From: Escherichia phage TL-2011b | Length of the DNA: 44,784 bases | Sequence record: JQ011317 | Direction: 5' to 3' (one strand) | In this document: positions 24,111 through 41,359 of the stretch, one piece after another | Layout of the letters: each line of letters opens with the position of its first letter | Position numbering within the stretch: position 1 is the stretch's first letter | Translations under genes and position numbers: made by a program | The notes under the pieces: generated by a model | Database searches by the model: none | Told to the model about the DNA's origin: nothing | What the model saw: only the letters and a program-made list of their open reading frames with translations

Positions 24111-26827
24111 TGCCAGTCGTACCAACAGTATCAGGACGTCAGGTTGAGAGTCGTGGTGTACAAACCGGTGGTTTTCAGACCTTCGATGTTCCTCAAGCAG
24201 GTCAGGTGCTGGCGAATGTCGCAGATCAGTATGCGGTGGCATATGGTGAAGCCAGGCAGAAAGCGAATGTTGCATTGTCTCAGGATGCCATCCTTCAGCT
24301 TAATCAGCGCAGCAATGAACGTCTTTATAACCCTCAAACCGGTTTTTATGCACAACAAGGCAAAAATGCGATTGGTAAGGGGCAAGAGTACATATCTGGA
24401 TTTGATCAGGATGTGGAAGAAATAGCTGCTTCATTGACTGATGAAGCAGCAAGAAATATGTTTTTGCAACAAGCCAGAACACAGAAAATTCAGTTCAGTA
24501 CTGGAGTTCTCAGACATGAGATAGGGCAGACAAATGCCTATGAAGATGAGCAATATCAGGCAACGAGAAAATTATGGATACAAAATGAAGCGGATGCCTG
24601 GAATGACCCGCAAACTGCCACTTTAGCCAGAAATTCCAGAATGGTAGCCATTGCCAGATATGGAGCTGCCAGGGGATGGTCACAAGAACGCATTCTGGAA
24701 GAAATAGAAAGTGATGATCGCAGTGCCACAGAAATGCGGGCGAAGAATTATGCCGCTGCCAATCCAGAAGGATGGCTAAATGGTCTGTTTCAGAAAAATG
24801 ATTCTGGAGGCATGGACATGCGTGCCATACGCCTTGTTGAATCAGGTGATCGACATTTTAATCCTGATGGTAGTCTTCTTGAGGGACCGATAACATCTTC
24901 TGGAGAGAGAGCGCAGGGGAAATACCAGTTAATGCCGGGCACAGGAAAAGAACTGGCGGCCAAGCGTGGCGTTGAATACAACCCTACTGACGAACAACAG
25001 CATGAAATGCTCGCCAGTGACTATGTAAATCAACTGTATGGTAAGTACGGTTCCGAAATATTGACCGGAGCAGCATATAACTGGGGGATGGGTAACGTGG
25101 ATAAACTGATCGCCAAAGTCGGTGATCCACGTAAAGGTGAAATATCAGAAGAAGAATTTATCCGAAATCTTCCATCAGAAACACAAGGGTGGCTTTCCCG
25201 ATATAGAAAAAATAAAACTGGAATGGATCCGCTGACTATTTATCAAATAGATAACCTTGCTAATAGTCAGATAGAAAAGCAAAGGAAGTTAATATTAGAA
25301 CAGCTTGAGCCAGCTATTAATAACACCATGGCACAGCTATATAACGGTGAGGTTCCAGATTATATACCGGCTCAGGAGACCATCATCAGGGGGTATGGAA
25401 AAAACGCAGATAAAATAATCAATCAACTGGATATAGCGATTGATAACGCGAGAATATTCCAGGCAATTCAGTATTTGCCTCCTTCTCAGCAGCAAGAAGA
25501 AATGCAGAAAGTGAAGCCTGAGGTTAACGATCCTCACTATGCGTTAAAACTCGATGCTTACGGAAAATTGTCTGCATTGCTTCAGAGATCAAATGAAGCA
25601 ATTCAGGCGCAACGGGATTCACGCAGATTCAATGAGGCGCTGACAATAGGTGAAAAATTAGACCCAAGCAACAAGTCAATGCAGAAAGCTGCTGATTACA
25701 CAGAAATGGCGCAGAACTTTCGTATTAATGATGCCTCCACTCATGATGGGGTTGTTCGGCTTGTGGCTCAGACTGGCATAATGCCTTCGCAGGTCATCAC
25801 GCAGCTTTCAGCAGTATCCCGATCCAGCAATCAGGAAGTGGTTAAAAATGCGGCGGAACTGTTTAGTCGGTTATATGAAACAGACAATGCATCTATTGGA
25901 AATATGCCGAAGGATATGCAGGGTTTTTATCTGACTGTTAAGCAACTAACTGATTCTGGCATGTCTGCTGATGCGGCTATCGAGCAGGCGCAGAACCTTA
26001 CGTACAACCAGACCGATGCTCTTAAAGCTCAATTGGCATCAACGCAGAGTTCAAAAGAGTACAAAAATGATCGCAGCAAGGCGATGAATTCTGCTGTCAG
26101 CAATATGGCGCAGTGGTTCCGTTGGGATCCGTCTGCGGATGACCAGACGCCGGAAGCAGCTAGATTCCGTAATGACTATCAGACGCTGTATGACATTAAC
26201 TACCGCGTTGCTGGTGGTAACGCTGACGTAGCGAAGCAAATGACCAACCAGCAGATAGCCCGCACCTGGAGTATCAGCGAGGTTAACGGAGAAGCGCAGT
26301 TTATGAAATATGCACCGGAGGCGCTTTATCAATATGGGCCGTCAGGCTGGCAGGCGGCGCAGTGGAAAGCTGAAAAAGAACGGCTGATGTACGGTGAGCG
26401 CAAAGAGATTATAACAACCAGTCCGACGTTGCTTGGGATCACGTCAGGTAATGCTCCTGTAGTTGAGACAAAAACCCCTGAGAGTCGTATTAATGGAGAA
26501 TTATTCATAACCCCTGACGTGTTAACACCTCGTAATGGTGATTACGCCATTATGGTAAGAACTAAGGATGAAAATGGCATCGATCGGGTCCAGCCGTTTT
26601 ATAACAAACATGGGCGTCCTATGCGTTGGGAACCATCACTAGAAGATTGGGAACCTTATAAGAAAATGCAGCAGGAATGGGAGCAGTACGAGCAGGAAGA
26701 AATTATGCGTGGACAGGCTATACGAAACTTCAAAGACAAGCATCGCGCTCTGGATGAGCAGTATCAGCGCCTGCATAACGAACGTATGGACAAATTTAAA
26801 GATTACTTTTCGTGGGGATCTAAATAA
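24110..26827 (+). CDS. Internal virion/ejection protein with lytic transglycosylase (SLT) domain
   Basis: ATG at 24110 with GGAGGA Shine-Dalgarno (TAATG overlap); SLT-like motif RLVESG ... GKYQLMPGTG ... AAYNWGMGN. Confidence 0.7.
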   Translation: MPVVPTVSGRQVESRGVQTGGFQTFDVPQAGQVLANVADQYAVAYGEARQKANVALSQDAILQLNQRSNERLYNPQTGFYAQQGKNAIGKGQEYISGFDQDVEEIAASLTDEAARNMFLQQARTQKIQFSTGVLRHEIGQTNAYEDEQYQATRKLWIQNEADAWNDPQTATLARNSRMVAIARYGAARGWSQERILEEIESDDRSATEMRAKNYAAANPEGWLNGLFQKNDSGGMDMRAIRLVESGDRHFNPDGSLLEGPITSSGERAQGKYQLMPGTGKELAAKRGVEYNPTDEQQHEMLASDYVNQLYGKYGSEILTGAAYNWGMGNVDKLIAKVGDPRKGEISEEEFIRNLPSETQGWLSRYRKNKTGMDPLTIYQIDNLANSQIEKQRKLILEQLEPAINNTMAQLYNGEVPDYIPAQETIIRGYGKNADKIINQLDIAIDNARIFQAIQYLPPSQQQEEMQKVKPEVNDPHYALKLDAYGKLSALLQRSNEAIQAQRDSRRFNEALTIGEKLDPSNKSMQKAADYTEMAQNFRINDASTHDGVVRLVAQTGIMPSQVITQLSAVSRSSNQEVVKNAAELFSRLYETDNASIGNMPKDMQGFYLTVKQLTDSGMSADAAIEQAQNLTYNQTDALKAQLASTQSSKEYKNDRSKAMNSAVSNMAQWFRWDPSADDQTPEAARFRNDYQTLYDINYRVAGGNADVAKQMTNQQIARTWSISEVNGEAQFMKYAPEALYQYGPSGWQAAQWKAEKERLMYGERKEIITTSPTLLGITSGNAPVVETKTPESRINGELFITPDVLTPRNGDYAIMVRTKDENGIDRVQPFYNKHGRPMRWEPSLEDWEPYKKMQQEWEQYEQEEIMRGQAIRNFKDKHRALDEQYQRLHNERMDKFKDYFSWGSK

Positions 26828-29800
26828 TGCCAGTTTATGCACAAGCTGAAGATCTTAATAACGGACTGATCCCGTCAGGTAATGTTTTGCCGGAACAAAC
26901 TGGGTTTGATGTTGCCCTTCCGGAAGGGGCTAATCCTGAGCCATTGCCACCGGAGCCTTCCGTATGGGGGGCTGCAATGCGACAGAACAATATTCTGGCT
27001 GGTTTTTTCCGACCAGCCAGACAGTTTGAACCGGTCGAAGGTTATAACCCATATGCTGATAAAAATGAGTTGCACGGTTATGAATACTGGGGGGCGAAAT
27101 TTGCAGATTCCCGATCGCCAGAGGAAACGGCGTGGATTAAGCAGCAGATAGATGATGAAAATGAAGACAGACGTTTATTGTCTGATGCTGGCGTAGTTGG
27201 AACTCTTGCCAGTATTGCTGCGGGAATGGATCCGGTTACTGTTGCGTCAATGTTTATCCCCGGTGCTCAAGGAGGGGCACTGGCGCGTATTGGCTCACAG
27301 ATTGCGATTGGTGCTGCCGGTACAGCATTAAGCGAGGTTGTGCTGAATAATCAGCAAATAACACGCTCATGGGGTGAAAGTGCCGCTCACGTTGCAGCGG
27401 GTGCGATGATGAGCGGCGTGTTTGCCAGTGCTGGTGTTGCGCTTTCGCCATCCGTCCGGGCTGCAGCCACGCGTGAGGTTGCTGATGCTCTTGATAATAT
27501 GAGCATTACATCAGCGACTGACAGGGCTGCCGCTTCGCTTTCTGATGGTGGTAGTGTTGGTGCTATGAAAATTGATACAGCGACTCTGGATGATTTAACC
27601 CCTGTTTCCGGTGGGTGGGTTGGAAAGGCTGCATGGAAAGCAGGGAGCTATCTTACTCCTTTGACAAGGTTAATGGAGTCTCCGTCCAAGACAGTGCGAA
27701 AAACAACGCTGGAGTTAGCCGAAAATAATTTCACCCTTAAAGGAAATGAAAGGGGGATTGAAACACCGGTAGCTGTAGAAACCCGTACACGTGGATGGCG
27801 GCGTGAAGAAGCTGCTGTTGTTGTCGGAAATAAACAGGCATACGCAAAGTATAAAGCTGATGGTGGTGACATGAGTTTTGATTCATTTCGTCAGCAGGTT
27901 GGGAATGCTATGCGAAGCGGTGATGTGCATGCTAATCCTGTTGTTCAGGAAACGGCGCAGGCGATGCGAACTGTATTAAATCGGGTGAAGGTTGAAATGC
28001 AAAAGCTTGGTTTATTACCGCCAGATGAAGAACTGAAAGCATTAGGCCAGGCAAGCTATTTTCCACGTATATATAAAGTTGGAAAAATAATCAGTGAACG
28101 CGATAAATTTCGACGTATTTTGGTTGACTGGTGGTCGAGAGGAAATAAAACACTGGATCCTGAGGATGCTGAAATTGCAGCGGATATCGTAATTAATAAA
28201 ATTACTGGTGCTAAGGTTCCACAGGATTTTGTCAGCGTATTTTCTGTAAAAGCCGCAGGTAGTACGAAAGAAAGAACATTAAATGTGCCTGATAGTCTTA
28301 TCAGGGATTATCTTGAAAGTGATGTGAATTACGTGCTGCAACGTCATATCCGTGAAGCGGCAGCAGAAATTGAGTTGACGAGAACATTTGGCAAACGAAC
28401 TATGACTGAGCGTCTGCAATTAATTGAGGACGAATATGACAGTCTGTTACGGGAAGTGCCTGAAAAAATAAAGGCGAAATATGACGAAAGTGTGGCAAAT
28501 CTGAAAGCACGTTATGAGAGCAATGGTGAAGTTGTTCCTCAGGGTAAACTCGATTCATTAATGCGAAAGTACGAAAAGGAATTACGGAAAGAACAGTCCA
28601 GACTTTCAAAATCAAGAGCAAATGATCTCAGAGACATAACAGCATTACGCGATCGTCTTGTTGGTACATATGGTATGCCTGATGATCCGTCTTCGTTTTT
28701 TGTTCGTGCTGGCGCTTTTCTGCGGGATGTGAACTTCACGACCAAACTCGGTGGAATGACAGTATCAGCTATTCCAGATCTGGCCAGAGGGGTTATGGTT
28801 AATGGTTTCCGTAACACCATGAAAGGCTATGCTTCTCAGATATCCCAATCACCGGCATTTAAGGCCAGCAAAGAAGAGATGTTGAAGATGGGGATTGGAT
28901 TGGAAGCTGTACTACATTCACGTTCTCGTGCAATTGGTGATCTTGTTGACAGTTCTTCCAGGACAACAGCAGTCGAAGCAGGAATGGAGCGAATTACTGA
29001 TGCCTTCGGCAAGCTGACACTCATGGATCGATTTAATGACATAAACAAATCCATGAACGGAATGCTCACGTCAGACGGTATTTTGTCTGGTGCGTTTTCT
29101 GCACGTCGCATGGCAAAACTCGGTATCAACGACAATATGGCTGCGCGTATTCGCAGTGAGTTCGAGAAACATGGTGAGGTAATTGATGGATGGCACATTG
29201 GTAACTTTGATAAATGGGACGATCAGTACGTTGCCGGAGTATTCCAGTCAGCGGTTCTGAAAGACGTTAATAACACTATCATCACCCCCGGTATTGGTGA
29301 CACACCTTTATGGGCGAGTACTCCAATGGGGCGAACGATATTTCAGTTTAAATCATTCACAACGGCTTCATACAACCGTGTGCTACTTGGTGGGTTACAG
29401 GAAGGAACTGCGCAATTTTATTATGGCACTGCATTTCAGATTGCTCTTGGCTCACTGGTCTATGCGCTAAAAGAAGCATCGAAAGGGAAAAATGTTGACT
29501 GGTCACCAGAGAAGCTGGTGCTTGAGGGTATAGATAGATCCGGTATTCTTGGGCCATTGATGGAATATAACAACATGGCTGAAAAGGCTACTGGTGGTGC
29601 TGTTGGGCTGGGGGCTTTATTTGGCACTGGCACACAGTCTAGGTATGCCAGTCGTGGATTCGTAGGATCTCTATTCGGACCGTCATTTGGTCTTGCGGAT
29701 AGCATCATTGATGTGACCGCAGGAGTGTTGAATGGTGATGCCGGTGATCGTATTGTGCATAATGTCCGAACCCTGATACCCGGCAATAACCTGTTCTGGA

Positions 29801-29841
29801 TTGCGCCACTAATAAACCAGGTGGATCCGGTGATGCGGTGA
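26827..29841 (+). CDS. Large internal virion/ejection protein (gp16 position)
   Basis: 1004-aa ORF coupled to the SLT protein gene. Confidence 0.5.
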   Translation: MPVYAQAEDLNNGLIPSGNVLPEQTGFDVALPEGANPEPLPPEPSVWGAAMRQNNILAGFFRPARQFEPVEGYNPYADKNELHGYEYWGAKFADSRSPEETAWIKQQIDDENEDRRLLSDAGVVGTLASIAAGMDPVTVASMFIPGAQGGALARIGSQIAIGAAGTALSEVVLNNQQITRSWGESAAHVAAGAMMSGVFASAGVALSPSVRAAATREVADALDNMSITSATDRAAASLSDGGSVGAMKIDTATLDDLTPVSGGWVGKAAWKAGSYLTPLTRLMESPSKTVRKTTLELAENNFTLKGNERGIETPVAVETRTRGWRREEAAVVVGNKQAYAKYKADGGDMSFDSFRQQVGNAMRSGDVHANPVVQETAQAMRTVLNRVKVEMQKLGLLPPDEELKALGQASYFPRIYKVGKIISERDKFRRILVDWWSRGNKTLDPEDAEIAADIVINKITGAKVPQDFVSVFSVKAAGSTKERTLNVPDSLIRDYLESDVNYVLQRHIREAAAEIELTRTFGKRTMTERLQLIEDEYDSLLREVPEKIKAKYDESVANLKARYESNGEVVPQGKLDSLMRKYEKELRKEQSRLSKSRANDLRDITALRDRLVGTYGMPDDPSSFFVRAGAFLRDVNFTTKLGGMTVSAIPDLARGVMVNGFRNTMKGYASQISQSPAFKASKEEMLKMGIGLEAVLHSRSRAIGDLVDSSSRTTAVEAGMERITDAFGKLTLMDRFNDINKSMNGMLTSDGILSGAFSARRMAKLGINDNMAARIRSEFEKHGEVIDGWHIGNFDKWDDQYVAGVFQSAVLKDVNNTIITPGIGDTPLWASTPMGRTIFQFKSFTTASYNRVLLGGLQEGTAQFYYGTAFQIALGSLVYALKEASKGKNVDWSPEKLVLEGIDRSGILGPLMEYNNMAEKATGGAVGLGALFGTGTQSRYASRGFVGSLFGPSFGLADSIIDVTAGVLNGDAGDRIVHNVRTLIPGNNLFWIAPLINQVDPVMR

Positions 29842-29852
29842 GTTAAACACCT

Positions 29853-30416
29853 TTAGCATGATTCAGGGGAAACCCCAATATTAAATATGAGTGACTCCCC
29901 TGAATCAGCATAATAATGTAATATTATTGACTTACGTTGTTTTCTTGCTTCGTAGAATAAACGCTCTTGCGGCGATAATTTGTGAAAACTGCCGGATGCA
30001 CAATATATGTTTTTTAACTTTTCGCGGGTTTCTTTTATTGTATCTTCTGATATGTATTTTAGGTATTTATCCGTATAGATGTTGCTACTATAAGAAATTA
30101 ATGTTTTGCTGTTGTTGTGATGTATTGTATTTTTATCGTTGAAGTCTGTATTTTTATTTACTGTCATTAGGTTTTTAATGATTACATGTAATACAATAGT
30201 CTCCCCATCATCAATTCCATATTTGATGTCATAGTCAGTATATTTATTTGTTATACCGCTTCCTGATAGCGGCACTATGTACTCTGAGAAAAATGAGTTT
30301 GCCGCGTGACCATCAAGAGCAATAGCAGTTTTTTTGTGGTAAAAATAAAACAATATTGAGAGAGTCAAAATAATAGCGACGCCTAATGCAACCTTTAATA
30401 TAGATATGGTTTTCAA
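29853..30416 (-). CDS. Membrane-anchored protein, low GC; candidate superinfection-exclusion protein
   Basis: TTG start at 30416 with AAGGAG Shine-Dalgarno (alternative ATG 30443); N-terminal TM helix; same strand and position as sieA next to mnt in P22. Confidence 0.45.
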   Translation of the reverse strand: MKTISILKVALGVAIILTLSILFYFYHKKTAIALDGHAANSFFSEYIVPLSGSGITNKYTDYDIKYGIDDGETIVLHVIIKNLMTVNKNTDFNDKNTIHHNNSKTLISYSSNIYTDKYLKYISEDTIKETREKLKNIYCASGSFHKLSPQERLFYEARKQRKSIILHYYADSGESLIFNIGVSPESC

Positions 30417-30506
30417 AATATCGCTCCTTGTTGTAACATACATCAGTAATGTGGCGTTTTTCAATTGTATTAAAGACGTGTAATATGTACACGCCTTTTG
30501 TTCTTC

Positions 30507-30939
30507 CTATTCAGGTATTTCAATTCCAAAACCATCTGCATCCCATGAGTTTTCACAGATGATGTAACCTAGTTCATTGAGCTTATTAAATGTTTTTTCA
30601 AAGATGATCTGGTAATCATTATCTGCAAGTGATTCCAGTTCAAGGTCATTAAGGTTTATATAAAAACTTGTATGTCCAAGTGTTATTTTCTTATTAATTT
30701 CATTAAAGGTTCTTTTGAAAATAATATTTGATATTTCATGTCGTGCATTGTTTGCAATAATTTTTGCTTCATAAGCAGAAATTACGTCATCTTCATGAAT
30801 ATCTTTCAGAAAGCTGGTGTCAAGACGTTGTACTATTTCAGCGTTCATTGATCGCTTATTGGCTTTTGCAGAAATTTCTATTTTTTCTTTTACTTCAACG
30901 GGAAGTCTGATCCCTTAGTTGTGGATCTTCTCTGCTCAT
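30507..30939 (-). pseudogene. Mnt-like ribbon-helix-helix repressor gene with apparent +1 frameshift
   Basis: ATG at 30939 encodes MSREDPQL then stops; the downstream frame continues GIRLPVEVKEKIEISAKANKRSMNAEIVQRL, matching P22 Mnt (MARDDPHFNFRMPMEVREKLKFRAEANGRSMNSELLQIV); one extra base near 30915. Confidence 0.55.
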
Positions 30940-30995
30940 GTTCTTCACCAAATATTGAGTTACTTGCAATGATTGAAGTATGCCTCACCGTGTGC

Positions 30996-31044
30996 TTGAC
31001 ATCAATGACGCACGGTGTGACAATTATTTTGCCCCACGGTGGGG
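30996..31044 (+). promoter_or_regulatory. Pant-like promoter with Omnt-like palindrome
   Basis: -35 TTGACA (30996-31001), 17-bp spacer, -10 GACAAT (31019-31024); palindrome CCCCACGGTGGGG at 31032-31044 (core CCACGGTGG as in P22 Omnt). Confidence 0.55.
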
Positions 31045-31059
31045 CTAAGGAGATATGAA

Positions 31060-31227
31060 ATGCAAAAAGCAAAAGAGATGTGTCAACGACGAGTTCGTTT
31101 TCCGGACGATGTGAAGTTAGCTATTGAAAGAAATGGCGAAAAAGAATGCCGAAAGTTCAATACAGAGATTATCTATCAGCTGAGGAAAGTGTATGGACTC
31201 ACTGGTGAGAAGAATAGCGTGGCATAA
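31060..31227 (+). CDS. Arc-like ribbon-helix-helix repressor (55 aa)
   Basis: ATG at 31060 with AAGGAG Shine-Dalgarno; RVRFPDDVKLAIERNGE ... NTEIIYQL resembles P22 Arc. Confidence 0.55.
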   Translation: MQKAKEMCQRRVRFPDDVKLAIERNGEKECRKFNTEIIYQLRKVYGLTGEKNSVA

Positions 31228-31237
31228 AACAGCGAAG

Positions 31238-31250
31238 CCCCACGGTGGCC
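31238..31250. promoter_or_regulatory. Second Omnt-like palindrome between the arc-like and ant genes
   Basis: CCCCACGGTGGCC with core CCACGGTGG; flanked by inverted repeat GAAGCCC / GGGCTTC. Confidence 0.45.
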
Positions 31251-31299
31251 AGACCGTCAGGGCTTCAGTATCGTAAAACTACGTATAGGAATTAACGAC

Positions 31300-32244
31300 A
31301 TGACGAGTATAGCAACAGCGGTATCTACTATCAACGTGCCATTCCACGGCGCAGAGCTTTATGTTGTCAATCATAACGGCGAACCATACACCCCAATGAA
31401 ACCAGTCGTTGAAGGTATGGGGCTGGACTGGAAAACGCAGTTCCGCAAGTTGCAACAACGCTTTAAGAGCTGCATGGTCGAAATGACCATTCAGCTCCCC
31501 GGTGATACTCAGCGTCGTCTGGTTATCTGTCTTGCTTTACGCAAACTTGCAGGTTGGCTGCAAACCATCAGCCCTAACAAAGTCCGCCCTGAAATCCGCG
31601 ACAAGGTAATCCAGTATCAGGAAGAGTGTGACGATGTGCTCTACGAGTACTGGACTAAAGGCCATGTGGTTAACCCACGCAAAGCTAAAAAGGCGTTGCC
31701 GGGTAAAATAACAACTGAACAGCAGGAAGCCATTAAACAACTCGTCATGAGTCGCGGTCAGTCTCTGCCAAAAGAAAAACAGGCTAAGGCGATGATCACC
31801 ATGTGGTCGTCACTGAAATCTCATTTTGGCTGTTCGTACAAAGAAATTGGTGAAGATCAATTTGCCGAAGCGTTGTCTCTTGTTGCTCGGGTTCCGCTTG
31901 AAGGGGAGTATCTCCCTGCTGGATCTGCATCAGAGAATGATGAAGTGGCAGTCAAGATGTTAGATGCGCTTCGTGAGGCAATTAAAACACAGACAAAATG
32001 TTATGGTTATCCATTGAAGCCCGGCTACCGCAGTCTGATTCATTCTCCGTCTGGTGTTCTCGGTCTGACGGAGAACTCACTGCTGATGAATCTGCTGAAC
32101 CAGTTACAGGAAGACGGGCACGATGTATCGGGCGCGGCGGCGGAGCTGACCACCATGTTCTGTTACATCGTTGGTGTGAGCAAATGCCTGCGTGATATCC
32201 AGACGCACGCGGAGTACATCAACGACAAGGCAGGGTTCTTCTGA
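31300..32244 (+). CDS. Anti-repressor (Ant) family protein 1
   Basis: 314 aa; N-terminal antirepressor-type domain (INVPFHGAELYVVNHNGEPY); C-terminal 77 aa identical to the second Ant protein. Confidence 0.65.
   Translation: MTSIATAVSTINVPFHGAELYVVNHNGEPYTPMKPVVEGMGLDWKTQFRKLQQRFKSCMVEMTIQLPGDTQRRLVICLALRKLAGWLQTISPNKVRPEIRDKVIQYQEECDDVLYEYWTKGHVVNPRKAKKALPGKITTEQQEAIKQLVMSRGQSLPKEKQAKAMITMWSSLKSHFGCSYKEIGEDQFAEALSLVARVPLEGEYLPAGSASENDEVAVKMLDALREAIKTQTKCYGYPLKPGYRSLIHSPSGVLGLTENSLLMNLLNQLQEDGHDVSGAAAELTTMFCYIVGVSKCLRDIQTHAEYINDKAGFF
32008..32244. repeat. Inverted repeat arm A (3' end of ant1)
   Basis: Reverse complement is about 97% identical to 33420-33656 (3 mismatches in the first 84 bp compared by hand). 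Confidence 0.7.
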
Positions 32245-32281
32245 CGGGCGGCGGCACAGGGATGTGCAAAACGAAACTATC

Positions 32282-32293
32282 GTGACATGTCAC
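32282..32293. repeat. Perfect 12-bp palindrome GTGACATGTCAC (copy 2)
   Basis: Identical to 11500-11511; 14-bp extended versions are reverse complements of each other. Confidence 0.6.
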
Positions 32294-32294
32294 A

Positions 32295-32320
32295 GGCCGC
32301 TTTCGCGGCCTTGTTCTTTT
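32295..32320 (+). terminator. Rho-independent terminator after ant1
   Basis: Stem GGCCGC / GCGGCC, loop TTTC, then TTGTTCTTTT. Confidence 0.65.
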
Positions 32321-32480
32321 AACGAATGCCACCGCCGCCCGGGCGGGAATCCGCAGAACGCCCACCGCAGCGGGAGCCGTCAGCGGCAGTATCGCTGTCG
32401 TGCTGACAACGACCGGCAAAGGCCTGAGTTGAAGCTACCAGAGACAACAAAACGAACAGTGCAGCAAATGCTTTTTTCAT
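32319..32480 (-). CDS. Small secreted peptide (53-aa precursor), Gly/Cys-rich
   Basis: Textbook Sec signal peptide MKKAFAALFVLLSLVASTQAFA; predicted mature 31-aa peptide with two Cys. Confidence 0.45.
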   Translation of the reverse strand: MKKAFAALFVLLSLVASTQAFAGRCQHDSDTAADGSRCGGRSADSRPGGGGIR

Positions 32481-32550
32481 TGTGAAATTTCCATCTATAA
32501 GCCACCTCAATGTGGCGTCAATGAGTGTAGCACTGACTTTTGTTTCGTCC

Positions 32551-32574
32551 ACAAAAAAGCCCGCGCTGCGGGCT
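32551..32574 (-). terminator. Terminator of the minus-strand two-gene operon
   Basis: Stem AGCCCGC / GCGGGCT with plus-strand A-run (U-run on the minus transcript); overlaps the stop codon. Confidence 0.55.
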
Positions 32575-33118
32575 ATTCCTTCCATTTATCAGAAAAAAGA
32601 TCTTCTTCTAAAGGCATTGGTTCTGTTTTTGTTTTCTCAAAGAATTGATAACTGATAGTGATTGCTTCCTCTTTAAACTCTTCTTGCTCAGTTATGTTGT
32701 GAGCATCTGCGTCAACAAAAAACATAACCAGCGCATCACGATTGTGATTTACCGAATAAACTAAAAAGCAATCACTTGTTGGTATGCATTTTACTTGTAC
32801 AGACGCTATATTTTTCCATGCATCCCAAGATGATTTTTTACCAGTGTGTTTTTTATCACTATCTTCTGGAATATAGTCTTGGTTATCGACATGAGTATGC
32901 CTGACATTTAGTTTAAGCATTTCTGTCGGACGAGCAAATGCAGCATCTTTACCAAGAGATGGATGGTATCCCGTTTTCCAATACTGGGTAAAGGCATCAG
33001 ATACTTTCTTCAGCTCAAGATCAGATGCACAAAGGGCCGAGAAATTTTGCGTATGCAACACTCGACCCTTATATCTGACAACTTGATTTTTATCATTCTG
33101 CGACGCAGACGAACTCAT
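32573..33118 (-). CDS. Putative toxin, YafO-like (181 aa)
   Basis: ATG at 33118; blocks LGKDAAF, LNVRHTHVDN, CFLVYSVNH resemble YafO toxins as recalled; overlaps a small upstream ORF by 26 nt. Confidence 0.4.
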   Translation of the reverse strand: MSSSASQNDKNQVVRYKGRVLHTQNFSALCASDLELKKVSDAFTQYWKTGYHPSLGKDAAFARPTEMLKLNVRHTHVDNQDYIPEDSDKKHTGKKSSWDAWKNIASVQVKCIPTSDCFLVYSVNHNRDALVMFFVDADAHNITEQEEFKEEAITISYQFFEKTKTEPMPLEEDLFSDKWKE

Positions 33119-33272
33119 AATTTTCCTTATTGTTACGAGAATCAAAGAAAGCGCGGGATACGCGACTTGCGTGATCTTTTGTCATAGTAACTTTTACGTA
33201 CTCTACGCTTCCATTGAAAGAACGTCTTGCGGCAGCTTGCGCTCTACGCATCTGCAATTTTTCGTTTCGCAT
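33093..33272 (-). CDS. Small basic protein (59 aa), putative antitoxin/regulator
   Basis: ATG at 33272 with GAGGT Shine-Dalgarno 6 nt upstream; below the ORF-track cutoff; TTACC-N5-GGTAA site 61 bp upstream. Confidence 0.4.
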   Translation of the reverse strand: MRNEKLQMRRAQAAARRSFNGSVEYVKVTMTKDHASRVSRAFFDSRNNKENYEFVCVAE

Positions 33273-33332
33273 GACATTACCTCATATCTCATAAGTTCAT
33301 TACACGGATTAATAAAAATGAAACCAATCCGT

Positions 33333-33347
33333 TTACCCTTGAGGTAA
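33333..33347. promoter_or_regulatory. TTACC-N5-GGTAA site in the promoter of the toxin-antitoxin-like operon
   Basis: TTACCCTTGAGGTAA. Confidence 0.45.
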
Positions 33348-33419
33348 TAGTACGCTATTCACCCACAGTCTGCAATCTGTACAGAATTATTTAAAGGCAC
33401 ATCCCTGTGCCGCCGCCCG

Positions 33420-33656
33420 TCAGAAGAACCCTGCTTTGTCGTTGATGTACTCCGCGTGCGTCTGGATATCACGCAGGCATTTGCTCACACCGACGATGTA
33501 GCAGAACATGGTGGTCAGCTCCGCCGCCGCGCCCGATACGTCGTGCCCGTCTTCCTGTAACTGGTTCAGCAGATTCATCAGCAGTGAGTTCTCCGTCAGG
33601 CCGAGAACACCAGACGGCGAGTGAATCAGGCTGCGGTAGCCTGGCTTCAGCGGGGC
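33420..33656. repeat. Inverted repeat arm B (3' end of ant2)
   Basis: See arm A at 32008-32244. Confidence 0.7.
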
Positions 33657-34115
33657 GCTGTAGGTTTTGTTCTCTATCTTCATCGCCTGCATCACTGCTG
33701 ACGCCGTGGCGTTGGCTACCTGGTCGGCAACCATCTTTATGCGTTCTTCCTGCGGGAGCGAGTTTTTAATGTAACTTCCGGTGCGGCGGATCTGAGGAAG
33801 AACCTCACCTGTAACCCATTTACGAAAGCGGTAGGGGATAGTGCCTGGTGTCACCGCATCGCGGCAGCGGAGGATCAGTGTGTAGAGGCCTGACTCGGAG
33901 ATGATGATCGATTCTTGCTCACCGCCAGGGGTGTCGGTTGAAGCGACGCCCTTCTCATCATCATCAAGTTTTCGAACAGCATCTCGATGGTTTGCTATGC
34001 CTATAGCCCGACAAACATCTGAAGCGATAAACCATGGCTCACCATTAATGACGATTACCCGTATATCGGCTTGGGATTCGAAAGAAAAAATGGACGTGCT
34101 TTTTGTAGCTGTCAT
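33420..34115 (-). CDS. Anti-repressor (Ant/Bro-N) family protein 2
   Basis: 231 aa; Bro-N-like N-terminus (VIVINGEPWFIASDVCRAIGI); C-terminal 77 aa identical to ant1. Confidence 0.7.
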   Translation of the reverse strand: MTATKSTSIFSFESQADIRVIVINGEPWFIASDVCRAIGIANHRDAVRKLDDDEKGVASTDTPGGEQESIIISESGLYTLILRCRDAVTPGTIPYRFRKWVTGEVLPQIRRTGSYIKNSLPQEERIKMVADQVANATASAVMQAMKIENKTYSAPLKPGYRSLIHSPSGVLGLTENSLLMNLLNQLQEDGHDVSGAAAELTTMFCYIVGVSKCLRDIQTHAEYINDKAGFF

Positions 34116-34384
34116 AGTGGTTACCTTTTAGTCTGGTTAATCACCACTACCGACGCCAATCGGTTGGTGGTGAACTGTGCAGGGTTGGCGTAACCGGCTA
34201 AAAGGACCCGGCGCACCTTTCGGTGCCCCCACACAGCCCACCATAATACGAATGTGGCCGTGCTATACGCATAAAAAAACCGCTTGCGCGGTGAATGCGC
34301 CTTTTAGTAATCCGGGACGCCAATCCCGGCACTGGATTTTTCCAGTGCCCGATTACTATGGCACAAGAGGAGTGCGATGTAAAT

Positions 34385-34492
34385 TTACCGCAAAGGTAAT
34401 GATAAGCGCGGGGATATATAAAAATCAACCGTATTTGGTTGGTGGCGTTTAACGCTTGATCACCTGAAAGCAAGATATTACCTTTAAGGTAA
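34385..34492. promoter_or_regulatory. Two TTACC-N5-GGTAA sites in the 400-bp noncoding region upstream of ant2 and the zinc-ribbon membrane protein gene
   Basis: TTACCGCAAAGGTAA (34385-34399) and TTACCTTTAAGGTAA (34478-34492). Confidence 0.45.
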
Positions 34493-34512
34493 TGTTATTG
34501 TGAGGAAAAGCA

Positions 34513-35241
34513 ATGGAAGTTTTCTGGATAGTTGTTGGTGTGGTTGCGGTGATTATTTACGTTATCAACCAGAACAAGACTAAGATCTCTGATCGTACGG
34601 TCGTTAATCATAACAAAACGATAAAGACCGAAGATGGGGAGATAACGATTAATCGTACACAGGTGATAGAACACACCTCTACTCAGTTTCAAAAAACTGG
34701 AGGTAATGCGCCTAATATTTCCGCACCTCCTGCTTATGATAGTGCGGTAATCCAGACATATTATAAACAGCAGGAGTTAGCAAAAGAGAGGCAACTGATT
34801 CAGCCAAAGCCATTTACAGCAGAGCTTCCACCTGGAGTGTCAACGCGTCCGGCATATCATGGAAGATTCCCTGGTGATGACGTATCGTCTCAGTCACCTA
34901 AAAAAGCACCTCAGGCAGTATCAGAGCCAGCAAGAATACCTTCTGTATCGCCGTCAAAAGAAGAATCAGCTAACGAAGTTTCAAGTGCCCGCAAGCAGTG
35001 TTTGCGATGCAGAATAAACCTTCCATATGAAAAATTCAGGAAATCGTCAAAAAATCCAGATGGATTGACTAAGTGGTGTGCAAGGTGTCTCGATGGCCCA
35101 AAGAATACACGTCATATGAAGTGGTGCCCAATTTGTAATGTCCGCAGAAAACGAACCAGCTTTTACCCTAATAATCAAAATGCGGATGGCTTAATGGCAT
35201 GGTGCAAAACGTGCTGGGACGAGCACAAAGCGAAACGATAG
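34513..35241 (+). CDS. Membrane-anchored protein with two C-terminal Cys4 zinc-ribbon repeats
   Basis: N-terminal TM helix, Pro/Ser-rich linker, two repeats of C-x2-C ... DGL-x3-WC-x2-C. Confidence 0.5.
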   Translation: MEVFWIVVGVVAVIIYVINQNKTKISDRTVVNHNKTIKTEDGEITINRTQVIEHTSTQFQKTGGNAPNISAPPAYDSAVIQTYYKQQELAKERQLIQPKPFTAELPPGVSTRPAYHGRFPGDDVSSQSPKKAPQAVSEPARIPSVSPSKEESANEVSSARKQCLRCRINLPYEKFRKSSKNPDGLTKWCARCLDGPKNTRHMKWCPICNVRRKRTSFYPNNQNADGLMAWCKTCWDEHKAKR

Positions 35242-35264
35242 GCCGCTCTTGCGGCCTTTTCTTT
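35241..35264. terminator. Terminator shared by convergent genes
   Basis: Stem GGCCGC / GCGGCC, loop TCTT, then TTTTCTTT. Confidence 0.55.
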
Positions 35265-35520
35265 ATGTGGTTTGTTTTCGTAGTTGTTCGGCACAATAGT
35301 CGAGATGTGTTTGCAGATCCTGCATAGACATCTGTGAGCTGGTGACGTAGTTAATCAGTGCAGTCAGTTCGGCAAGTGGGCCATCGACATTAAATCCATC
35401 CTTATCGAGATCCCGGAGTAATTTCATCAAGTGCGATCCCTCCACCAGTGATCTGACGCCTCCCGGCGTGTGAATCCTTTCGGTAAATCCGTCTTCCAGT
35501 GGATAGTGATACTGCTGCAT
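35263..35520 (-). CDS. Stand-alone Ant C-terminal-domain protein (85 aa); candidate LexA-controlled antirepressor (Tum-like)
   Basis: ATG at 35520 with GGAGAAG Shine-Dalgarno; diverged homologue of the C-terminal domain shared by both Ant proteins; LexA box 20 bp upstream. Confidence 0.55.
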   Translation of the reverse strand: MQQYHYPLEDGFTERIHTPGGVRSLVEGSHLMKLLRDLDKDGFNVDGPLAELTALINYVTSSQMSMQDLQTHLDYCAEQLRKQTT

Positions 35521-35538
35521 CTTATCTTCTCCATGCAA

Positions 35539-35560
35539 TAACTGTATAAATATACAGTAG
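35539..35560. promoter_or_regulatory. LexA (SOS) box
   Basis: AACTGTATAAATATACAGTA: CTGT-N8-ACAG with AT-rich spacer, close to the LexA consensus. Confidence 0.75.
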
Positions 35561-35596
35561 CAAATAATTTGTTTGCTATCCAGCACGTTTTGCGAA

Positions 35597-35611
35597 TCAC
35601 CTGAAAGGTAA
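35597..35611. promoter_or_regulatory. TCACC-N5-GGTAA site upstream of the tailspike gene
   Basis: TCACCTGAAAGGTAA, one mismatch to the recurring palindrome. Confidence 0.35.
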
Positions 35612-35715
35612 TATCTGTTCGTATTTATGGGTTATCTATCCATATGTGGTTTTTCAGGTAATAGAATAACCGGATATGCGGCGCAACGGGTGCTGCGACT
35701 ATCTGGAGATTTAAC

Positions 35716-37809
35716 ATGACGGTCTCAACCGAAGTTGACCACAACGAATACACCGGTAACGGTGTTACAACGACATTCCCTTATACCTTCAGGATTTTCC
35801 AGAAATCTGATTTAGTAGTGCAGGTTGTTGACCTGAACGAGAACATCACAGAGCTGATTCTTGACACTGATTACATAGTTACTGGGGCTGGAGGATACAA
35901 TGGTGGCAATATAATTCTGTCGAAGGCATTGGTTAGCGGTTATCTGATTTCTATATCACGAGAGCTCCCGGTTACGCAGGAAACTGATTTGCGTAATCAG
36001 GGTAAGTTCTTTGCAGAAGTGCATGAGGATGCTTTTGATAAGCTAACGATGCTGATCCAGCAGGTTCGAAGTTGGTTTAGCTTGGCGCTGCGTAAGCCGT
36101 CATTCGTGGCAAATTATTATGATGCGCTTAACAATTACATCAGAAACTTACGCGATCCTTCAACCCCCCAAGATGCAGCCACTAAAAATTATGTTGATAC
36201 ACAGCTCAGTTCTAACCTGGGGTGTACTTTGCGCGTTCAGGAGCAGATACCGCAACTTCCTGATGCTGCCTCCCGCGCAAACAAGATGCCTGCTTTCGAT
36301 AACGATGGTAACCCTATTGTTGTGCTTCCTCCATCAGGGTCTGCGTCTGACGTATTGATCGAGCTAGCCAAGCCAACTGGATCTGACTTGGTTGGTTATG
36401 GGTCACAGACGGTTAAAGCAACCCTTGATAGCCTGAATAGCATGCGGGAGGAGCTTCTTGATAAAACAGGATTTAATGCGCTGGGGCGCTTCCTTAATCT
36501 TTCAGAGCTTCGCTCCTGTGTTCCGGAGGAGGCAGGGCAGATTGTATACGTAGCATCAGCAGCTAGCACTACACATGCTGAAAACCACCTTGGTGGCGGC
36601 TTTTTCGAGTCTGTTGATAACATTCAGGCGTGGGCTGATGATGGTGGAATTGTAATCAAGCCAGAAACTGGAACGATGGTATGGAGACGAATTAATTTTA
36701 CCACTTACGACATGCAATTTTGGGGGGTGAAACCTGACGGAGTCACAGATAACGCAACAGCTATAACTCTTGCAACTAACTTTGCTCGCTCAAACAAATG
36801 CATTCTAGAGGCTCCTGCTGGAAACATAAATACATCAAAAACAATCCCAATTTATGACAATATGGGAATTAGAGGACAGGGAAAGGCTGAAGCGACAGTT
36901 TTTTATAAAACAACAAATGACAAAATAGATCTCACAAAAAATGGAGAAGTAATTCTTCAGGTGGATGCATTATGTGCTTTTATACCAAAGCAATGGGATC
37001 TAACAGATAACTCAATTAGTTCATTTTGTGTTAACGGTAGAGTTGAAAACTGCATGTTTAGAAGGCTTGGCTTAACACAAGAAAATGTAGATTCTTATAG
37101 AAATTATTACGGACTGTTTTTAGGAAAATCAGCAGCACCAGTTATCAGACAGTCAATTTTTGAATGTGCTTATATCGGATGCTTCTCTTATGTGCCGTTC
37201 TCTGGCGTAATGGAAATGGTCGGTTTCCCACAATATCCAGGGAAAGGATATGCTGGAGTTTTGTTTGAAGATTTTAGGGATGGTCAAATAAAAGTAATTG
37301 GCACTTCTATGGATATGCGCCTTGTTCAAGTTAATGGTTACCAGTTGTCATTTAGAATGTCCGGGATGCAATATACTACCATGACCAATTGTACAGCTGA
37401 AAACTGCACGCCAATGGATGGGGAATCAACTTGCTACGCATTTGATTTTGTAAATCCGTATTGCATTGTCATGAATACTTGTGCAACAGAATTTGTTAAA
37501 GGGGGGCAATTGCGTGTTAGCGTTCAGGGAAACCCATCATTCCGCCCATCTATTATTGTCAATGGCTTTCTACCAATTGACCAACAAAGTCCAGTAGTGC
37601 AAACACCTATAATTGATATTGACAATGGTGGTGTTGTTGAAATGAGTGTCATATTGAATGGTGGTGATTGGGCAATAAATCCATCGGCTGTAAATTTAAC
37701 TTCTCCAAAAGCAAGTGGTAATGGGTTGAAGGTAAGATTGATCGGTGTAAATGGCTCTCCTTCTTCGGTGTGGAGTGCGTCTTCTGGTGCAGAAGTAAGG
37801 GAGTTCTAA
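35716..37809 (+). CDS. Tailspike / tail fiber protein
   Basis: 697 aa; N-terminal virion-attachment-type domain followed by a long beta-rich C-terminal region; GGAGA Shine-Dalgarno. Confidence 0.65.
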   Translation: MTVSTEVDHNEYTGNGVTTTFPYTFRIFQKSDLVVQVVDLNENITELILDTDYIVTGAGGYNGGNIILSKALVSGYLISISRELPVTQETDLRNQGKFFAEVHEDAFDKLTMLIQQVRSWFSLALRKPSFVANYYDALNNYIRNLRDPSTPQDAATKNYVDTQLSSNLGCTLRVQEQIPQLPDAASRANKMPAFDNDGNPIVVLPPSGSASDVLIELAKPTGSDLVGYGSQTVKATLDSLNSMREELLDKTGFNALGRFLNLSELRSCVPEEAGQIVYVASAASTTHAENHLGGGFFESVDNIQAWADDGGIVIKPETGTMVWRRINFTTYDMQFWGVKPDGVTDNATAITLATNFARSNKCILEAPAGNINTSKTIPIYDNMGIRGQGKAEATVFYKTTNDKIDLTKNGEVILQVDALCAFIPKQWDLTDNSISSFCVNGRVENCMFRRLGLTQENVDSYRNYYGLFLGKSAAPVIRQSIFECAYIGCFSYVPFSGVMEMVGFPQYPGKGYAGVLFEDFRDGQIKVIGTSMDMRLVQVNGYQLSFRMSGMQYTTMTNCTAENCTPMDGESTCYAFDFVNPYCIVMNTCATEFVKGGQLRVSVQGNPSFRPSIIVNGFLPIDQQSPVVQTPIIDIDNGGVVEMSVILNGGDWAINPSAVNLTSPKASGNGLKVRLIGVNGSPSSVWSASSGAEVREF

Positions 37810-37820
37810 CTATACAAACA

Positions 37821-37875
37821 TTGACATAATTAATATGTTAATCTAATCTGCCGGAAATTTCAACCATTCCGGCAG
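37821..37875 (+). promoter_or_regulatory. Promoter-like element and 5' hairpin upstream of the acyltransferase gene
   Basis: TTGACA at 37821-37826; inverted repeat CTGCCGGAA / TTCCGGCAG (37848-37875) ends 4 nt before the ATG. Confidence 0.35.
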
Positions 37876-37879
37876 AGTT

Positions 37880-38986
37880 ATGAATAATAAAGGTAATATA
37901 ATTCAAAGTCTTACATCGTTGAGAATGTTTGCCGCTCTTGGTGTTTTTGTTAGTCACCTTGGGCTATTGTCTCAATCATCAATTGGTGTGTTTAATGCTG
38001 CGGCAAAGTATTTTTTTAATGGTTACATAGGTGTGACATTTTTCTACATTCTTTCTGGTTTTATTATAAACTATAGTTTCATAAATCATGTAGAAAAAGA
38101 AGCATTCAGCAATAAAGATTTTATTGTGTACAGAATAGCAAGAATATTTCCTGTGCATATTGTAGCTCTTCTTTGCTTTATTTTAATATTTATGCATGGT
38201 AAGATGGGTGATGGTATTAGTAAGGAAATGCTTATTTCAAATGTGTTTCTGGTGCAGTCATTCATCCCAATTCAGGATTATTATTTTTCTTTTAACTCCG
38301 TTTCATGGAGTATCTCATGTGAGATGTTTTTCTACGTTTCATTCTGCTTCTTAACAAGGCTAAAAACAAAATATTTAGTCTGTGTTCTGTTATTTGTTCT
38401 TGTGATTAATTTCTATTTCTTAATTAACCCGCCCATAACAATATCACAGCACTGGTTGTTTTATATAAACCCAGCATTTAGAATTGGTGATTTTATTATA
38501 GGGATGATGCTCTGTAGAGTATTTATTAATACTAGTGCAAGACCTAACAATACTGTTTGCAGTATCATTGAAATTGCATCAATATTGTCATTGCTTTTGA
38601 CAGTATATATAGCAACAAACTATATTACATATATGAATATAAAGTATGATGTTCTATATATTCCTTGCATGGCATTTATAGTTATTGCCTTTGCTTTTAA
38701 TGGTGGGATATTATCTAAAATTCTTAAAAATAGATTTATGGTTTTGCTTGGCGAGGCTTCTTTTTCATTTTATATGTTTCACTGGATGATTATTCAAATA
38801 GTAACAAAAATATTGAGCGTAGAAAAAGACAACTTTATCGATATGTTGGTGTATGTTGTTTTATCTTTGTTTGTTTCTATTATTGCATCAATACTATCAT
38901 TCAAGTTGATAGAAATGCCAATAAATAAAACAATAAGAAGATGTTGGAAAAAATATAGGGGGATGCAGTCTGTCAGGAGTGCATGA
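37880..38986 (+). CDS. Acyltransferase family 3 membrane protein (O-antigen O-acetyltransferase, serotype conversion)
   Basis: 368 aa, about 10 predicted TM helices, AT-rich; N-terminal R..AALGVFVSH pattern typical of acyltransferase-3 proteins. Confidence 0.75.
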   Translation: MNNKGNIIQSLTSLRMFAALGVFVSHLGLLSQSSIGVFNAAAKYFFNGYIGVTFFYILSGFIINYSFINHVEKEAFSNKDFIVYRIARIFPVHIVALLCFILIFMHGKMGDGISKEMLISNVFLVQSFIPIQDYYFSFNSVSWSISCEMFFYVSFCFLTRLKTKYLVCVLLFVLVINFYFLINPPITISQHWLFYINPAFRIGDFIIGMMLCRVFINTSARPNNTVCSIIEIASILSLLLTVYIATNYITYMNIKYDVLYIPCMAFIVIAFAFNGGILSKILKNRFMVLLGEASFSFYMFHWMIIQIVTKILSVEKDNFIDMLVYVVLSLFVSIIASILSFKLIEMPINKTIRRCWKKYRGMQSVRSA

Positions 38987-39024
38987 GTATTTTTTCTTTT
39001 GTTCGTTTTAGGTGTACAAAGATT

Positions 39025-39066
39025 GAAACAGGCAACCCCACATTGATGGGGTTGCCTGTTTTCAAT
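39025..39066 (+). terminator. Strong terminator after the acyltransferase gene
   Basis: Long stem GAAACAGGCAACCCCA / TGGGGTTGCCTGTTTC around a 6-nt loop, then TTTT. Confidence 0.7.
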
Positions 39067-39342
39067 GCGTTATAAAAATAAGTTTTTTTGTTATTTAAAC
39101 TTTCTTTATTACTGATGAATCCTCACCAAATAAATTCAAGGTATAAGTCAATATATGGCATATAATAAATATATCTAAACTCACCTAATTATATATAATG
39201 TAATTTTGAACACTTAATAGATAATTGCTCCTGTTCTTTCTTCCATTCATAAAATTAAATTATGTTTATCCATATATGGTTTGTTGTGTATGATATACCC
39301 ACTCAACTAAGGGGGTGTCATGAACAGTAAACGGTGGTTGCA

Positions 39343-39747
39343 ATGTCTGCTGGTCTAACAAGTGAATCATTAAATCAGTGGCTTAGTGTGAGTTCTCTTG
39401 CTGCGGTGATAGCGGGAGTTCCTCCAGAGGTCGCTTTGGGATCTTTGGCTGGTGCGGTAATTTTTGTTACCTCTGCAGTAGAATACCCAATCCGTCGTCG
39501 TGTTCTTCTGTCGATGCTCAGCTTTCTCTGCGGCCTTCTTTTCTACAAACCGGCAGCATCAATTCTTATCGGCATAGCTAGCCTGATTCCAACCATCACG
39601 CAGGACTCATTCGAGAAAGGGATTGTATTTTCTGCAGGTGCGTTCGTGTCGGCAATTGTCGCTGTTCGTATTGGTATATGGCTCTATCACCGTTCCGATA
39701 ATCCACGCGAGTTAATTCCGGGGAGAAAAGACGATGGTAACGCATGA
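39343..39747 (+). CDS. Holin (three predicted TM helices)
   Basis: 134-aa hydrophobic protein at the head of the lysis cassette; alternative TTG start at 39334. Confidence 0.5.
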   Translation: MSAGLTSESLNQWLSVSSLAAVIAGVPPEVALGSLAGAVIFVTSAVEYPIRRRVLLSMLSFLCGLLFYKPAASILIGIASLIPTITQDSFEKGIVFSAGAFVSAIVAVRIGIWLYHRSDNPRELIPGRKDDGNA

Positions 39748-40042
39748 CCTTTTTTTACTTATCACCAATGCAGTTATTTGTACTGGCATAGCAATTCGCG
39801 TTGTCACTTTCCAGCGTAACGGATCTCAACACCGAAGATGGGGTGGGTGGATTGCTTATTTCCTGATTGTTGCTGCGGCCAGTATTCCTGTTCGTGTCGT
39901 TTATGCAATCTGGTTACGCACGCCAATGGCTGTGGATTTATCTGAGGTCATTATCAACGCTGTCATGCTTGCTGCGGTTATTAAAACGCGCGGTAACGTT
40001 GTGCAGATTTTTAAAATAACGAGGTCTAAACATGGAGATTAA
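39734..40042 (+). CDS. Second small membrane protein (holin/antiholin-like)
   Basis: 102 aa, two predicted TM helices, overlaps neighbours by ATGA-type coupling. Confidence 0.45.
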
Positions 40043-40661
40043 ACAATTCCAGCGAGCTGCTGGTATTAGCGAGGCGTTGGCCGCACGCTGGTTCTCGCAT
40101 ATAACTTCTGCGATGAAAGAGTTTGGTATCAGCAAAACCGAAGATCAGGCAATGTTTATTGCTCAGGTCGGGCATGAGTCTGGTGGTTTCACCCGGTTGC
40201 AGGAGAATTTCAACTACAGTGTCAGCGGTCTAGCTAACTTCGTTCGGGCTGGGCGTCTCACTCAGGGGCAGGCTAATGCACTGGGTCGCCGTGCTGGTGA
40301 ACCACCATTGCCACTTGAGCGCCAGCGCGCGATCGCAAATCTGGTATACAGCAAACGCATGGGTAACAATGCTCCCGGCGATGGCTGGAATTACCGTGGG
40401 CGCGGGCTTATCCAGATTACCGGTTTGAATAACTATCGTGACTGTGGAAACGGTCTGAAAGTTGACCTGCTGGAGAATCCTGAACTGCTGGCGCAGGACG
40501 AATACGCGGCTCGTAGCGCGGCGTGGTTCTTCTCCGGCAAAGGCTGCATGAAGTATACCGGCGATATTGCTCGTGTAACTCTGATTATCAATGGTGGCAG
40601 GAACGGCATAGACGACCGGCGAGCGCGATACATCACTGCCAGTAAGGTGCTGACGGTATGA
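40032..40661 (+). CDS. Endolysin, glycoside hydrolase family 19-like
   Basis: Motifs [12 protein letters not shown] and [12 protein letters not shown] typical of GH19 lysozyme-like endolysins. Confidence 0.75.
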
Positions 40662-41140
40662 TCCTGACATTCGTAAAATCATATTGGAAACAGCTGCTTA
40701 TCGTGTTGATGCTTGCTGCTCTGTTCATCGTCGGAGTGGTTGCCTGGAATATACACGGCAGCCGCCAGTACGATGCCGGGTATGCGCAGGCGGAAGAAGA
40801 CCGCAAAGCCGAAGAAGACAAAGTTCGTCAGTACTACGAACAGGAGAAAGTGACCAATGAACGTGAAGCGCAGCAGAGAATCGATCAGGCGCGCAGTGAT
40901 GCTCTTGATGCTGCCGCTCGCGCTGGCAGGTTGCAGCGACAGCTCGTTGCCATCCGTGAGCAGCTCAGGCAATATAACGCCATTGTCGGCGCTGGGGCGT
41001 CAGCCGCAGATACCGGAGTTTTGCTTGCCGACGTGTTCAGCAAATCTCTCGAGAGAAATAGACAACTGGCAGAGTATGCTGACCGGGCAGCCGAAGCCGG
41101 AAGAGTCTGCGAAAAACAGTATGACACCCTGACCAGATAG
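40658..41140 (+). CDS. i-spanin (Rz-like)
   Basis: N-terminal TM helix then coiled-coil periplasmic domain; last gene of the lysis cassette. Confidence 0.6.
40857..41132 (+). CDS. o-spanin (Rz1-like lipoprotein) embedded in the +1 frame of the i-spanin gene
   Basis: Lipobox LALAGC after a positively charged N-region; Pro/Ser-rich mature part; AGGAGA Shine-Dalgarno. Confidence 0.5.
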   Translation: MNVKRSRESIRRAVMLLMLPLALAGCSDSSLPSVSSSGNITPLSALGRQPQIPEFCLPTCSANLSREIDNWQSMLTGQPKPEESAKNSMTP

Positions 41141-41265: not shown

Positions 41266-41295
41266 TTTTAATCCCTGCACTATGAATGAACAAAA

Positions 41296-41321: not shown

Positions 41322-41359
41322 ATCTTCAAGAATCATAGGCTTGAAGTTACTAACATCGA

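Follow-up and report, generated by a model that had tools for sequence, protein, structure and literature searches.

The stretch of DNA analysed here, hereafter the window, is 44,784 nt long with 47.05% G+C and comprises an entire PhiV10/epsilon15-like prophage, located between guaA and yfgI, within which lies what reads, from its sequence, as a complete P22-type immI module: an mnt-like gene, a region resembling the promoter Pant and the mnt operator (O-mnt), an arc-like gene, the antisense RNA sar, and the antirepressor gene ant. The mnt-like repressor gene (30507..30939, minus strand) is interrupted, spanning 433 nt in the window compared to 432 nt, or 143 residues, in all relatives. It is transcribed divergently from the arc-ant operon, in which sar is situated between arc and ant, and the position of sieA in P22 is taken by a gene for a 187-residue protein (29853..30416, minus strand) matching phrog_8033, a family labelled as of unknown function. 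Elsewhere, the prophage carries genes for an integrase, RecT, replication proteins, terminase, portal, capsid, the gp10 'staple', T7-gp14-like internal proteins, a tailspike, and lysis functions, while the right-hand 3.4 kb of the window is host DNA (yfgI-pdeF). A 45-kb, 47% G+C, PhiV10-like, guaA-associated, and mitomycin-inducible phage has been described from the EHEC O103:H25 strain NVH-734, where it was discovered by cloning phage DNA out of culture supernatants; its release of particles after mitomycin C is reported as about 10 times that of the Stx2 phage (PMC3293862). The reported size, G+C content, guaA site, and PhiV10-likeness of that phage all fit the window.

The preliminary description of this DNA had proposed that a +1 frameshift separates the start codon of the mnt-like gene from the body of its reading frame, and translation of the window confirms this. 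The ATG at 30939-30937 (minus strand) opens a frame of 14 codons, MSREDPQLRDQTSR, which ends at the TGA at 30897-30895 and thus leaves a 5' remnant ORF at 30895..30939 (minus strand). The Mnt-like body lies in the +1 frame, where TAA (30917-15) is followed by GGG ATC AGA CTT, giving GIRLPVEVKEKIEISAKANKRSMNAEI..., also GIRLPVEVKEKIEISAKANKRSMNAEIVQRLD..., and runs on to a stop codon at 30509-30507 (minus strand). Aligned against the window, three E. coli orthologues show CTAAGGATC in place of its CTAAGGGATC, which places the extra base within the G-run at 30912..30914 (minus strand; CCC on the plus strand). This run is GGG in the window and GG in every relative, according to both the alignments and the allele census presented below. 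The position originally suggested for the skipped base, near 30915, was accurate to within 1-3 nt. The break falls between codons R9 (AGG, 30915-30913) and I10. Deleting one G yields a 143-residue ORF of 432 nt, the product of which is identical to WP_000085730.1, the annotated CDS of the relatives. Because the insertion is a deterministic sequence difference and not a statistical pattern, chance is not at issue in its recognition.

As a consequence of the extra base, the DNA-binding N-terminus lacks an intact ORF in the window, being broken after codon 9, whereas it is encoded by an uninterrupted frame in every relative. The longest ORF remaining in the Mnt frame encodes 113 residues from the internal Met31 (ATG 30848; 30507..30848, minus strand), and there is no alternative ATG, GTG, or TTG start in that frame from the TAA at 30917-15 to the ATG at 30848. 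The 113-residue ORF is without residues 1-30, the part aligned to the N-terminal portion of the Arc-type domain of P22 Mnt, and gives no Pfam match.

The repaired protein, with the additional G removed, matches the Pfam family Arc (PF03869) over residues 2-46 with an E-value of 1.1e-14, and its best match in the PDB is P22 Mnt itself (1mnt_A, E 3.5e-07), with which residues 3-45 align without gaps to residues 2-44 (19/43 identical), in line with the earlier claim of an equal-length alignment with the Mnt N-terminus after removal of one base. In a BLASTP comparison with the P22 mnt product, residues 1-86 cover all 83 residues of Mnt at 32% identity (pairwise E 3e-14). The repaired ORF thus encodes an N-terminal Arc/MetJ-type ribbon-helix-helix domain homologous to Mnt, and the break between R9 and I10 falls, as had been supposed, in the stretch that the alignment matches to the DNA-contacting N-terminal portion of P22 Mnt. 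Among the PHROGs, the full-length protein matches phrog_1388 (function label: unknown; E 5e-72), and residues 1-84 match phrog_795, which is labelled 'partition protein ATPase', the product name given to mnt in the P22 RefSeq record. WP_000085730.1 and phrog_1388 represent the same protein as that of the window once one G is taken out, the extra base being found only in the window copy.

The repaired protein is considerably longer than P22 Mnt (143 versus 83 residues), and its extra C-terminal α/β unit of about 57 residues gave no fold match in the PDB. It has 262 homologues of about 142-150 residues, spread over the Enterobacterales. A set of 21 of these, from many Enterobacterales species, all begin with M-S-R-E-D-P-Q-x-R-I-R-x-P, although their overall identity is only 59-67%. 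No other part of the protein is as well conserved, and it is exactly this N-terminus that the frameshift severs; its invariance in such divergent homologues implies that the intact frame is strongly selected. A 122-residue variant of the Mnt-like protein, ending in ...IIFEKHLISSMN, was also observed on a 939-nt contig in the Logan assemblies (P0002), and would fit an independent frameshift close to the C-terminus in other read sets.

The remaining parts of the module were assigned by reference to the annotated record of P22. Phage L was considered as a template for the operator and dropped in favor of P22, because phage L has no arc-ant adjoining its mnt. The Pant-like promoter (30996..31024, plus strand) has the form TTGACA-17-GACAAT with a TG, matches in 10/12 positions, and is predicted to read into the arc-like gene and ant; its position relative to the operator is that of the annotated P22 Pant, and its -35 hexamer is kept in an orthologous module from Enterobacter. 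An O-mnt-like palindrome, GCCCCAC-G-GTGGGGC (31031..31045), has its midpoint at 31038, 14 nt beyond the predicted -10 hexamer. In P22, the annotated mnt operator, AGGTCCAC-G-GTGGACCT, has its center 15 nt after the -10 hexamer of Pant and contains the same core, CCACGGTGG. Judged by these positions, the palindrome would overlap the predicted start of the Pant transcript. Two further CAC(C/G)GTG cores, at 30986-30992 and 31011-31017, flank the -35 hexamer, and neighboring centers in the resulting array are 25 and 24 bp apart. All three palindromes are kept, together with the -35 hexamer, in the module of a siphovirus-type Enterobacter prophage in which the spacers have diverged. The 'perfect' palindrome is located at opposite ends of the three-site array in E. 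coli and Enterobacter.

Downstream of the operator region, a gene in the position of arc (31060..31227, plus strand) is preceded by the ribosome-binding site AAGGAG (31047-31052) and encodes 55 residues; a CDS of the same 168 nt is annotated in relatives. Its product matches phrog_228, 'Arc-like repressor' (E 3.4e-05), and is 33% identical to P22 Arc over 40 residues (pairwise E 4e-05), while it has no Pfam match and a search of the PDB gave only spurious matches to TALE repeats. The PHROGs match and the weak pairwise alignment with P22 Arc tentatively suggest that this protein is Arc-like. The sar RNA (31231..31298, minus strand) is recognized by the full Rfam model RF00262 with a score of 44.8 bits, above the gathering threshold of 43 (E 2.4e-07). 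It is antisense to the arc-ant junction, its 5' end abutting the start codon of ant at 31300, and a Psar-like promoter (31334-31306, minus strand) lies inside the start of ant. The ant gene itself (31300..32244, plus strand) is intact, encodes 314 residues with a P22_AR_N domain (PF10547, E 2.9e-45) and matches to phrog_524/245 (anti-repressor Ant), and is identical to that of the nearest relatives.

The module therefore shares with the immI region of P22 its gene order and orientation, including the gene in the sieA position that follows the DNA-injection genes, the operator core CCAC-G-GTGG (14 nt after the -10 hexamer here versus 15 nt in P22), sar, and the P22_AR_N domain of ant. It differs in having a longer intergenic region, with 56 nt from the mnt ATG to the -35 hexamer compared to 22 nt in P22, and three related palindromes in place of the one O-mnt plus a distinct O-arc of P22. 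It also differs in residing in a PhiV10/epsilon15-type podovirus, unlike P22-like phages, and in the frameshift that the mnt-like gene carries in the window. It is, in other words, a well-understood kind of system in a different type of phage, and its Mnt homologue is longer. The arc and ant genes of P22 are repressed by Mnt, the loss of which results in synthesis of the antirepressor and in lytic growth (PMC12922286, PMC11016777, PMC7380047); sar is antisense to the ant mRNA, and overexpressed Ant complexes and inhibits the C2 repressor (PMC11016777, PMC7380047, PMC12922286). By analogy, an intact Mnt-like protein would act as a repressor that binds the palindrome centered on CCAC-G-GTGG just downstream of the -10 hexamer of Pant, and probably also the two related upstream sites, and its binding would prevent expression of the arc-like gene and of ant during lysogeny. 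Of modest interest are the portability of the immI cassette between unrelated prophage types, its three conserved operator-like palindromes, and the uncharacterized C-terminal domain of its Mnt homologue.

The preliminary description had called for a comparison with orthologous prophages and had itself named one base fewer in these as an outcome contrary to its claim. Indeed, the extra base is missing from every orthologue examined, and the ORF is intact in all of them, which weakens the readings of the extra base as a disruption of the repressor or as a recoding site. The GG allele, together with an intact gene annotated as 'Arc family DNA-binding protein', is present in 36/36 of the complete E. 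coli genomes in which the locus occurs, and GG is likewise found in all fetched loci (L001-L020, L056, L059, and L062) and in 17/17 IMG/VR contigs. A search of metagenomes found the GGG allele on no contig. The GGG allele is private to the window and absent from about 70 other copies of the locus. Neither allele was found among contigs of species-representative genomes, because those genomes lack the prophage, and the 'phages' collection held no near match to the locus. The products of ORFs specific to the window alleles (8338-8730, minus strand; 8234-8488, plus strand; and 30890-31072, minus strand) are not on record.

The 113-residue product starting at Met31 is on record in 260 index blocks and was considered as possible evidence of the frameshifted allele. 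It was rejected, since 10/10 inspected loci have an intact GG, from which it follows that these records are start-codon miscalls by the gene caller. The miscall at Met31 is systematic (L007-L016 and L018): the 143-residue ORF is open at these loci, yet the 30 N-terminal residues belonging to the Arc-type domain are lost from the annotation.

The nearest relatives place the extra G in a wider context. Among independent assemblies, and leaving aside the two insertions described below, GCA_012047665.1 (L051 and L056) equals the window base for base over 6213-11720 and 10630-33102, and GCA_000234605.2 (AGSG01, strain NVH-734; L053 and L059) does so over 6213-10724 and 25715-44784, while GCA_000937275.1, GCA_000752595.1, GCA_012831595.1, and Logan ERR10936119 are identical to the window over shorter spans. 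In total, at least 7 assemblies with 100% identical flanks have GG. Over the 38.6 kb from 6213 to 44784, there are 0 substitutions between the window and its nearest relatives and exactly 2 differences, both of which are 1-nt insertions in the window and both of which break conserved genes. The second is an A at 8369 (plus strand), in the context GAATC[A]TGCG, which splits a DUF1064 gene (8307-8652). This gene is intact in every relative examined, even in assemblies that elsewhere match the window at 100% identity over 4.5-5.5 kb. The two insertions are about 22.5 kb apart and neither lies in a long homopolymer, the A at 8369 not being in any run and the other lengthening GG to GGG.

A generally noisy assembly was considered and rejected, since isolated, coding, private insertions occur only at 8369 and 30912-14. 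Nearly all remaining gaps relative to three relatives belong to compensated clusters within divergent stretches, have lengths that are multiples of 3, fall outside coding sequence, or disappear when other relatives are compared. The AGSG01 contigs, which derive from whole-genome sequencing of NVH-734, carry the intact GG allele. The window may be the deposited record of the NVH-734 phage (JQ011317), in which case the contigs of the same strain contradict both insertions.

Of the three readings offered in the preliminary description, namely an assembly error, a recoding site, and a real disruption of the repressor, the first is the most likely, the second is unsupported, no orthologue having the two-frame arrangement, and the third is weakened and less probable than the first. 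Most likely, the prophage itself lacks the insertion. We favor the view, with a probability of roughly 0.6, that the extra G is an error of sequence determination, whether in the consensus, in the assembly, or in a cloned fragment, and that the true gene is the intact 143-residue ORF. In mutation-accumulation data from E. coli, substitutions outnumber indels about ten to one, and 2 insertions accompanied by 0 substitutions are therefore improbable as real divergence and resemble residual sequence error. Furthermore, ant, sar, and the arc-like gene are undamaged and do not differ from those of relatives, so that a lysogen with a true mnt null would, under the P22 model, be expected to be unstable. 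What speaks against an error is that neither insertion is in a long homopolymer, so that the classic signature of 454, Ion, or nanopore sequencing is missing. In annotation, both the mnt-like gene and the DUF1064 gene (8307-8652) are best treated as probably intact genes with sequence errors, and the frameshift should not be taken as evidence of the loss of a maintenance repressor or of recoding in this prophage.

The principal alternative is that the extra G is a genuine and very recent loss-of-function mutation, either in the lysogen or in the population of virions or clones that was sequenced, which we regard as possible, if rather unlikely. At most, the 113-residue fragment from Met31 would then be made, which would be unable to bind the operator. 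Pant would be derepressed, with the arc-like protein and sar as the sole brakes on Ant, and by analogy with P22 one would expect either more frequent spontaneous induction or a phage that fails to maintain lysogeny. The extra base is, after all, present in the sequence as given, and frameshift decay of prophage genes is known; relatives of this same prophage also carry genes annotated as frameshifted or interrupted or as pseudogenes, indicating that real decay does occur in the family. If the DNA was obtained from free phage particles, lysogeny-defective mutants would presumably be over-represented in it. Moreover, a null allele might be tolerated, since in Kapi1, an E. coli temperate phage that by its description shares a P22-like immI locus (mnt-arc-ant) and has an intact mnt, expression of mnt was not detectable in lysogens (PMC12922286).

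Against such a mutation weigh the privacy of the allele with respect to both the about 70 other copies and the metagenomes, the GG in the assemblies with identical flanks, and the second private frameshifting insertion 22.5 kb away, which in the absence of substitutions over 38.6 kb makes for an unlikely natural spectrum. The intactness of ant adds to this by the P22 model, in which a null lysogen should not be stable. Were the GGG allele nevertheless confirmed, derepression of ant would be a reasonable expectation from the biology of P22, and the window would hold a naturally occurring mnt-null allele, carried alongside an intact ant by a PhiV10-like phage that is inducible. Such an allele would test the need for a P22-style immI circuit in lysogeny outside the P22-like phages, a result that would be useful and unsurprising.

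That the site is one of recoding, at which ribosomes shift by +1 at CUA-AGG-G to produce full-length repressor at a low, regulated level, appears very improbable. Two routes are conceivable: tRNA-Arg(CCU) might re-pair from AGG to GGG, giving the exact wild-type sequence ...QLR-IRLP..., or GGG might be decoded out of frame, giving ...QL-G-IRLP... The rare codon AGG would occupy the A site at CUA-AGG-G, and a tRNA that moved from AGG to GGG would still form two G:C pairs plus a G:U, leaving the product wild type. AGG is the rarest codon of E. coli and provokes +1 shifts, for example at tandem AGG codons in E. coli and at CUU-AGG-C in Ty1. The site is indeed similar to the programmed +1 sites of prfB (CUU-UGA-C) and Ty1 (CUU-AGG-C) in having a Leu codon followed by the rare AGG, with the frame restored by a +1 shift.

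It differs from those sites in being unconserved and apparently without a stimulatory element, and in that the CUA peptidyl-tRNA, judged against prfB and Ty1, re-pairs poorly on UAA. The two-frame arrangement is found in none of the about 70 other copies, and the 21 diverse homologues (59-67% identical) are all single-frame; a recoding signal confined to a single sequence cannot be an evolved one. In addition, the sequence of the window has no Shine-Dalgarno-like stimulator upstream of the site and no hungry or stop codon after AGG, the next codon in the 0 frame being the common GAU. The prophage also encodes its own tRNA-Arg(UCU), as a gene for tRNA-Arg(TCT) at 14420-14496 (minus strand) that is annotated in relatives too, which would ease the decoding of AGA and AGG, including the codon at the shift site. 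The chances are equally slim that the extra G is real and that low expression by +1 slippage makes this a hypomorphic, translation-limited mnt allele; if it were so, a higher rate of spontaneous induction would be set for an active PhiV10-like phage. Finally, a phase-variable G tract switching the repressor on and off by slipped-strand mispairing has next to nothing in its favor beyond the occurrence of the indel within a mononucleotide run, as contingency tracts are typically 7 nt or longer while this run is only 2-3 nt, shows no length variation among the about 70 other copies, and is accompanied by a second private insertion (8369) in no run.

A further observation concerns the region beyond ant. 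A 253-nt inverted repeat of about 96% identity (32015-32267 versus 33397-33649) arises from duplication of the 3' end of ant in the 3' end of a convergent Bro-N gene (33420-34115, minus strand), and a YafO-family toxin-like gene sits between the ant and Bro-N copies. It is possible that this repeat serves as a substrate for inversion or domain exchange.
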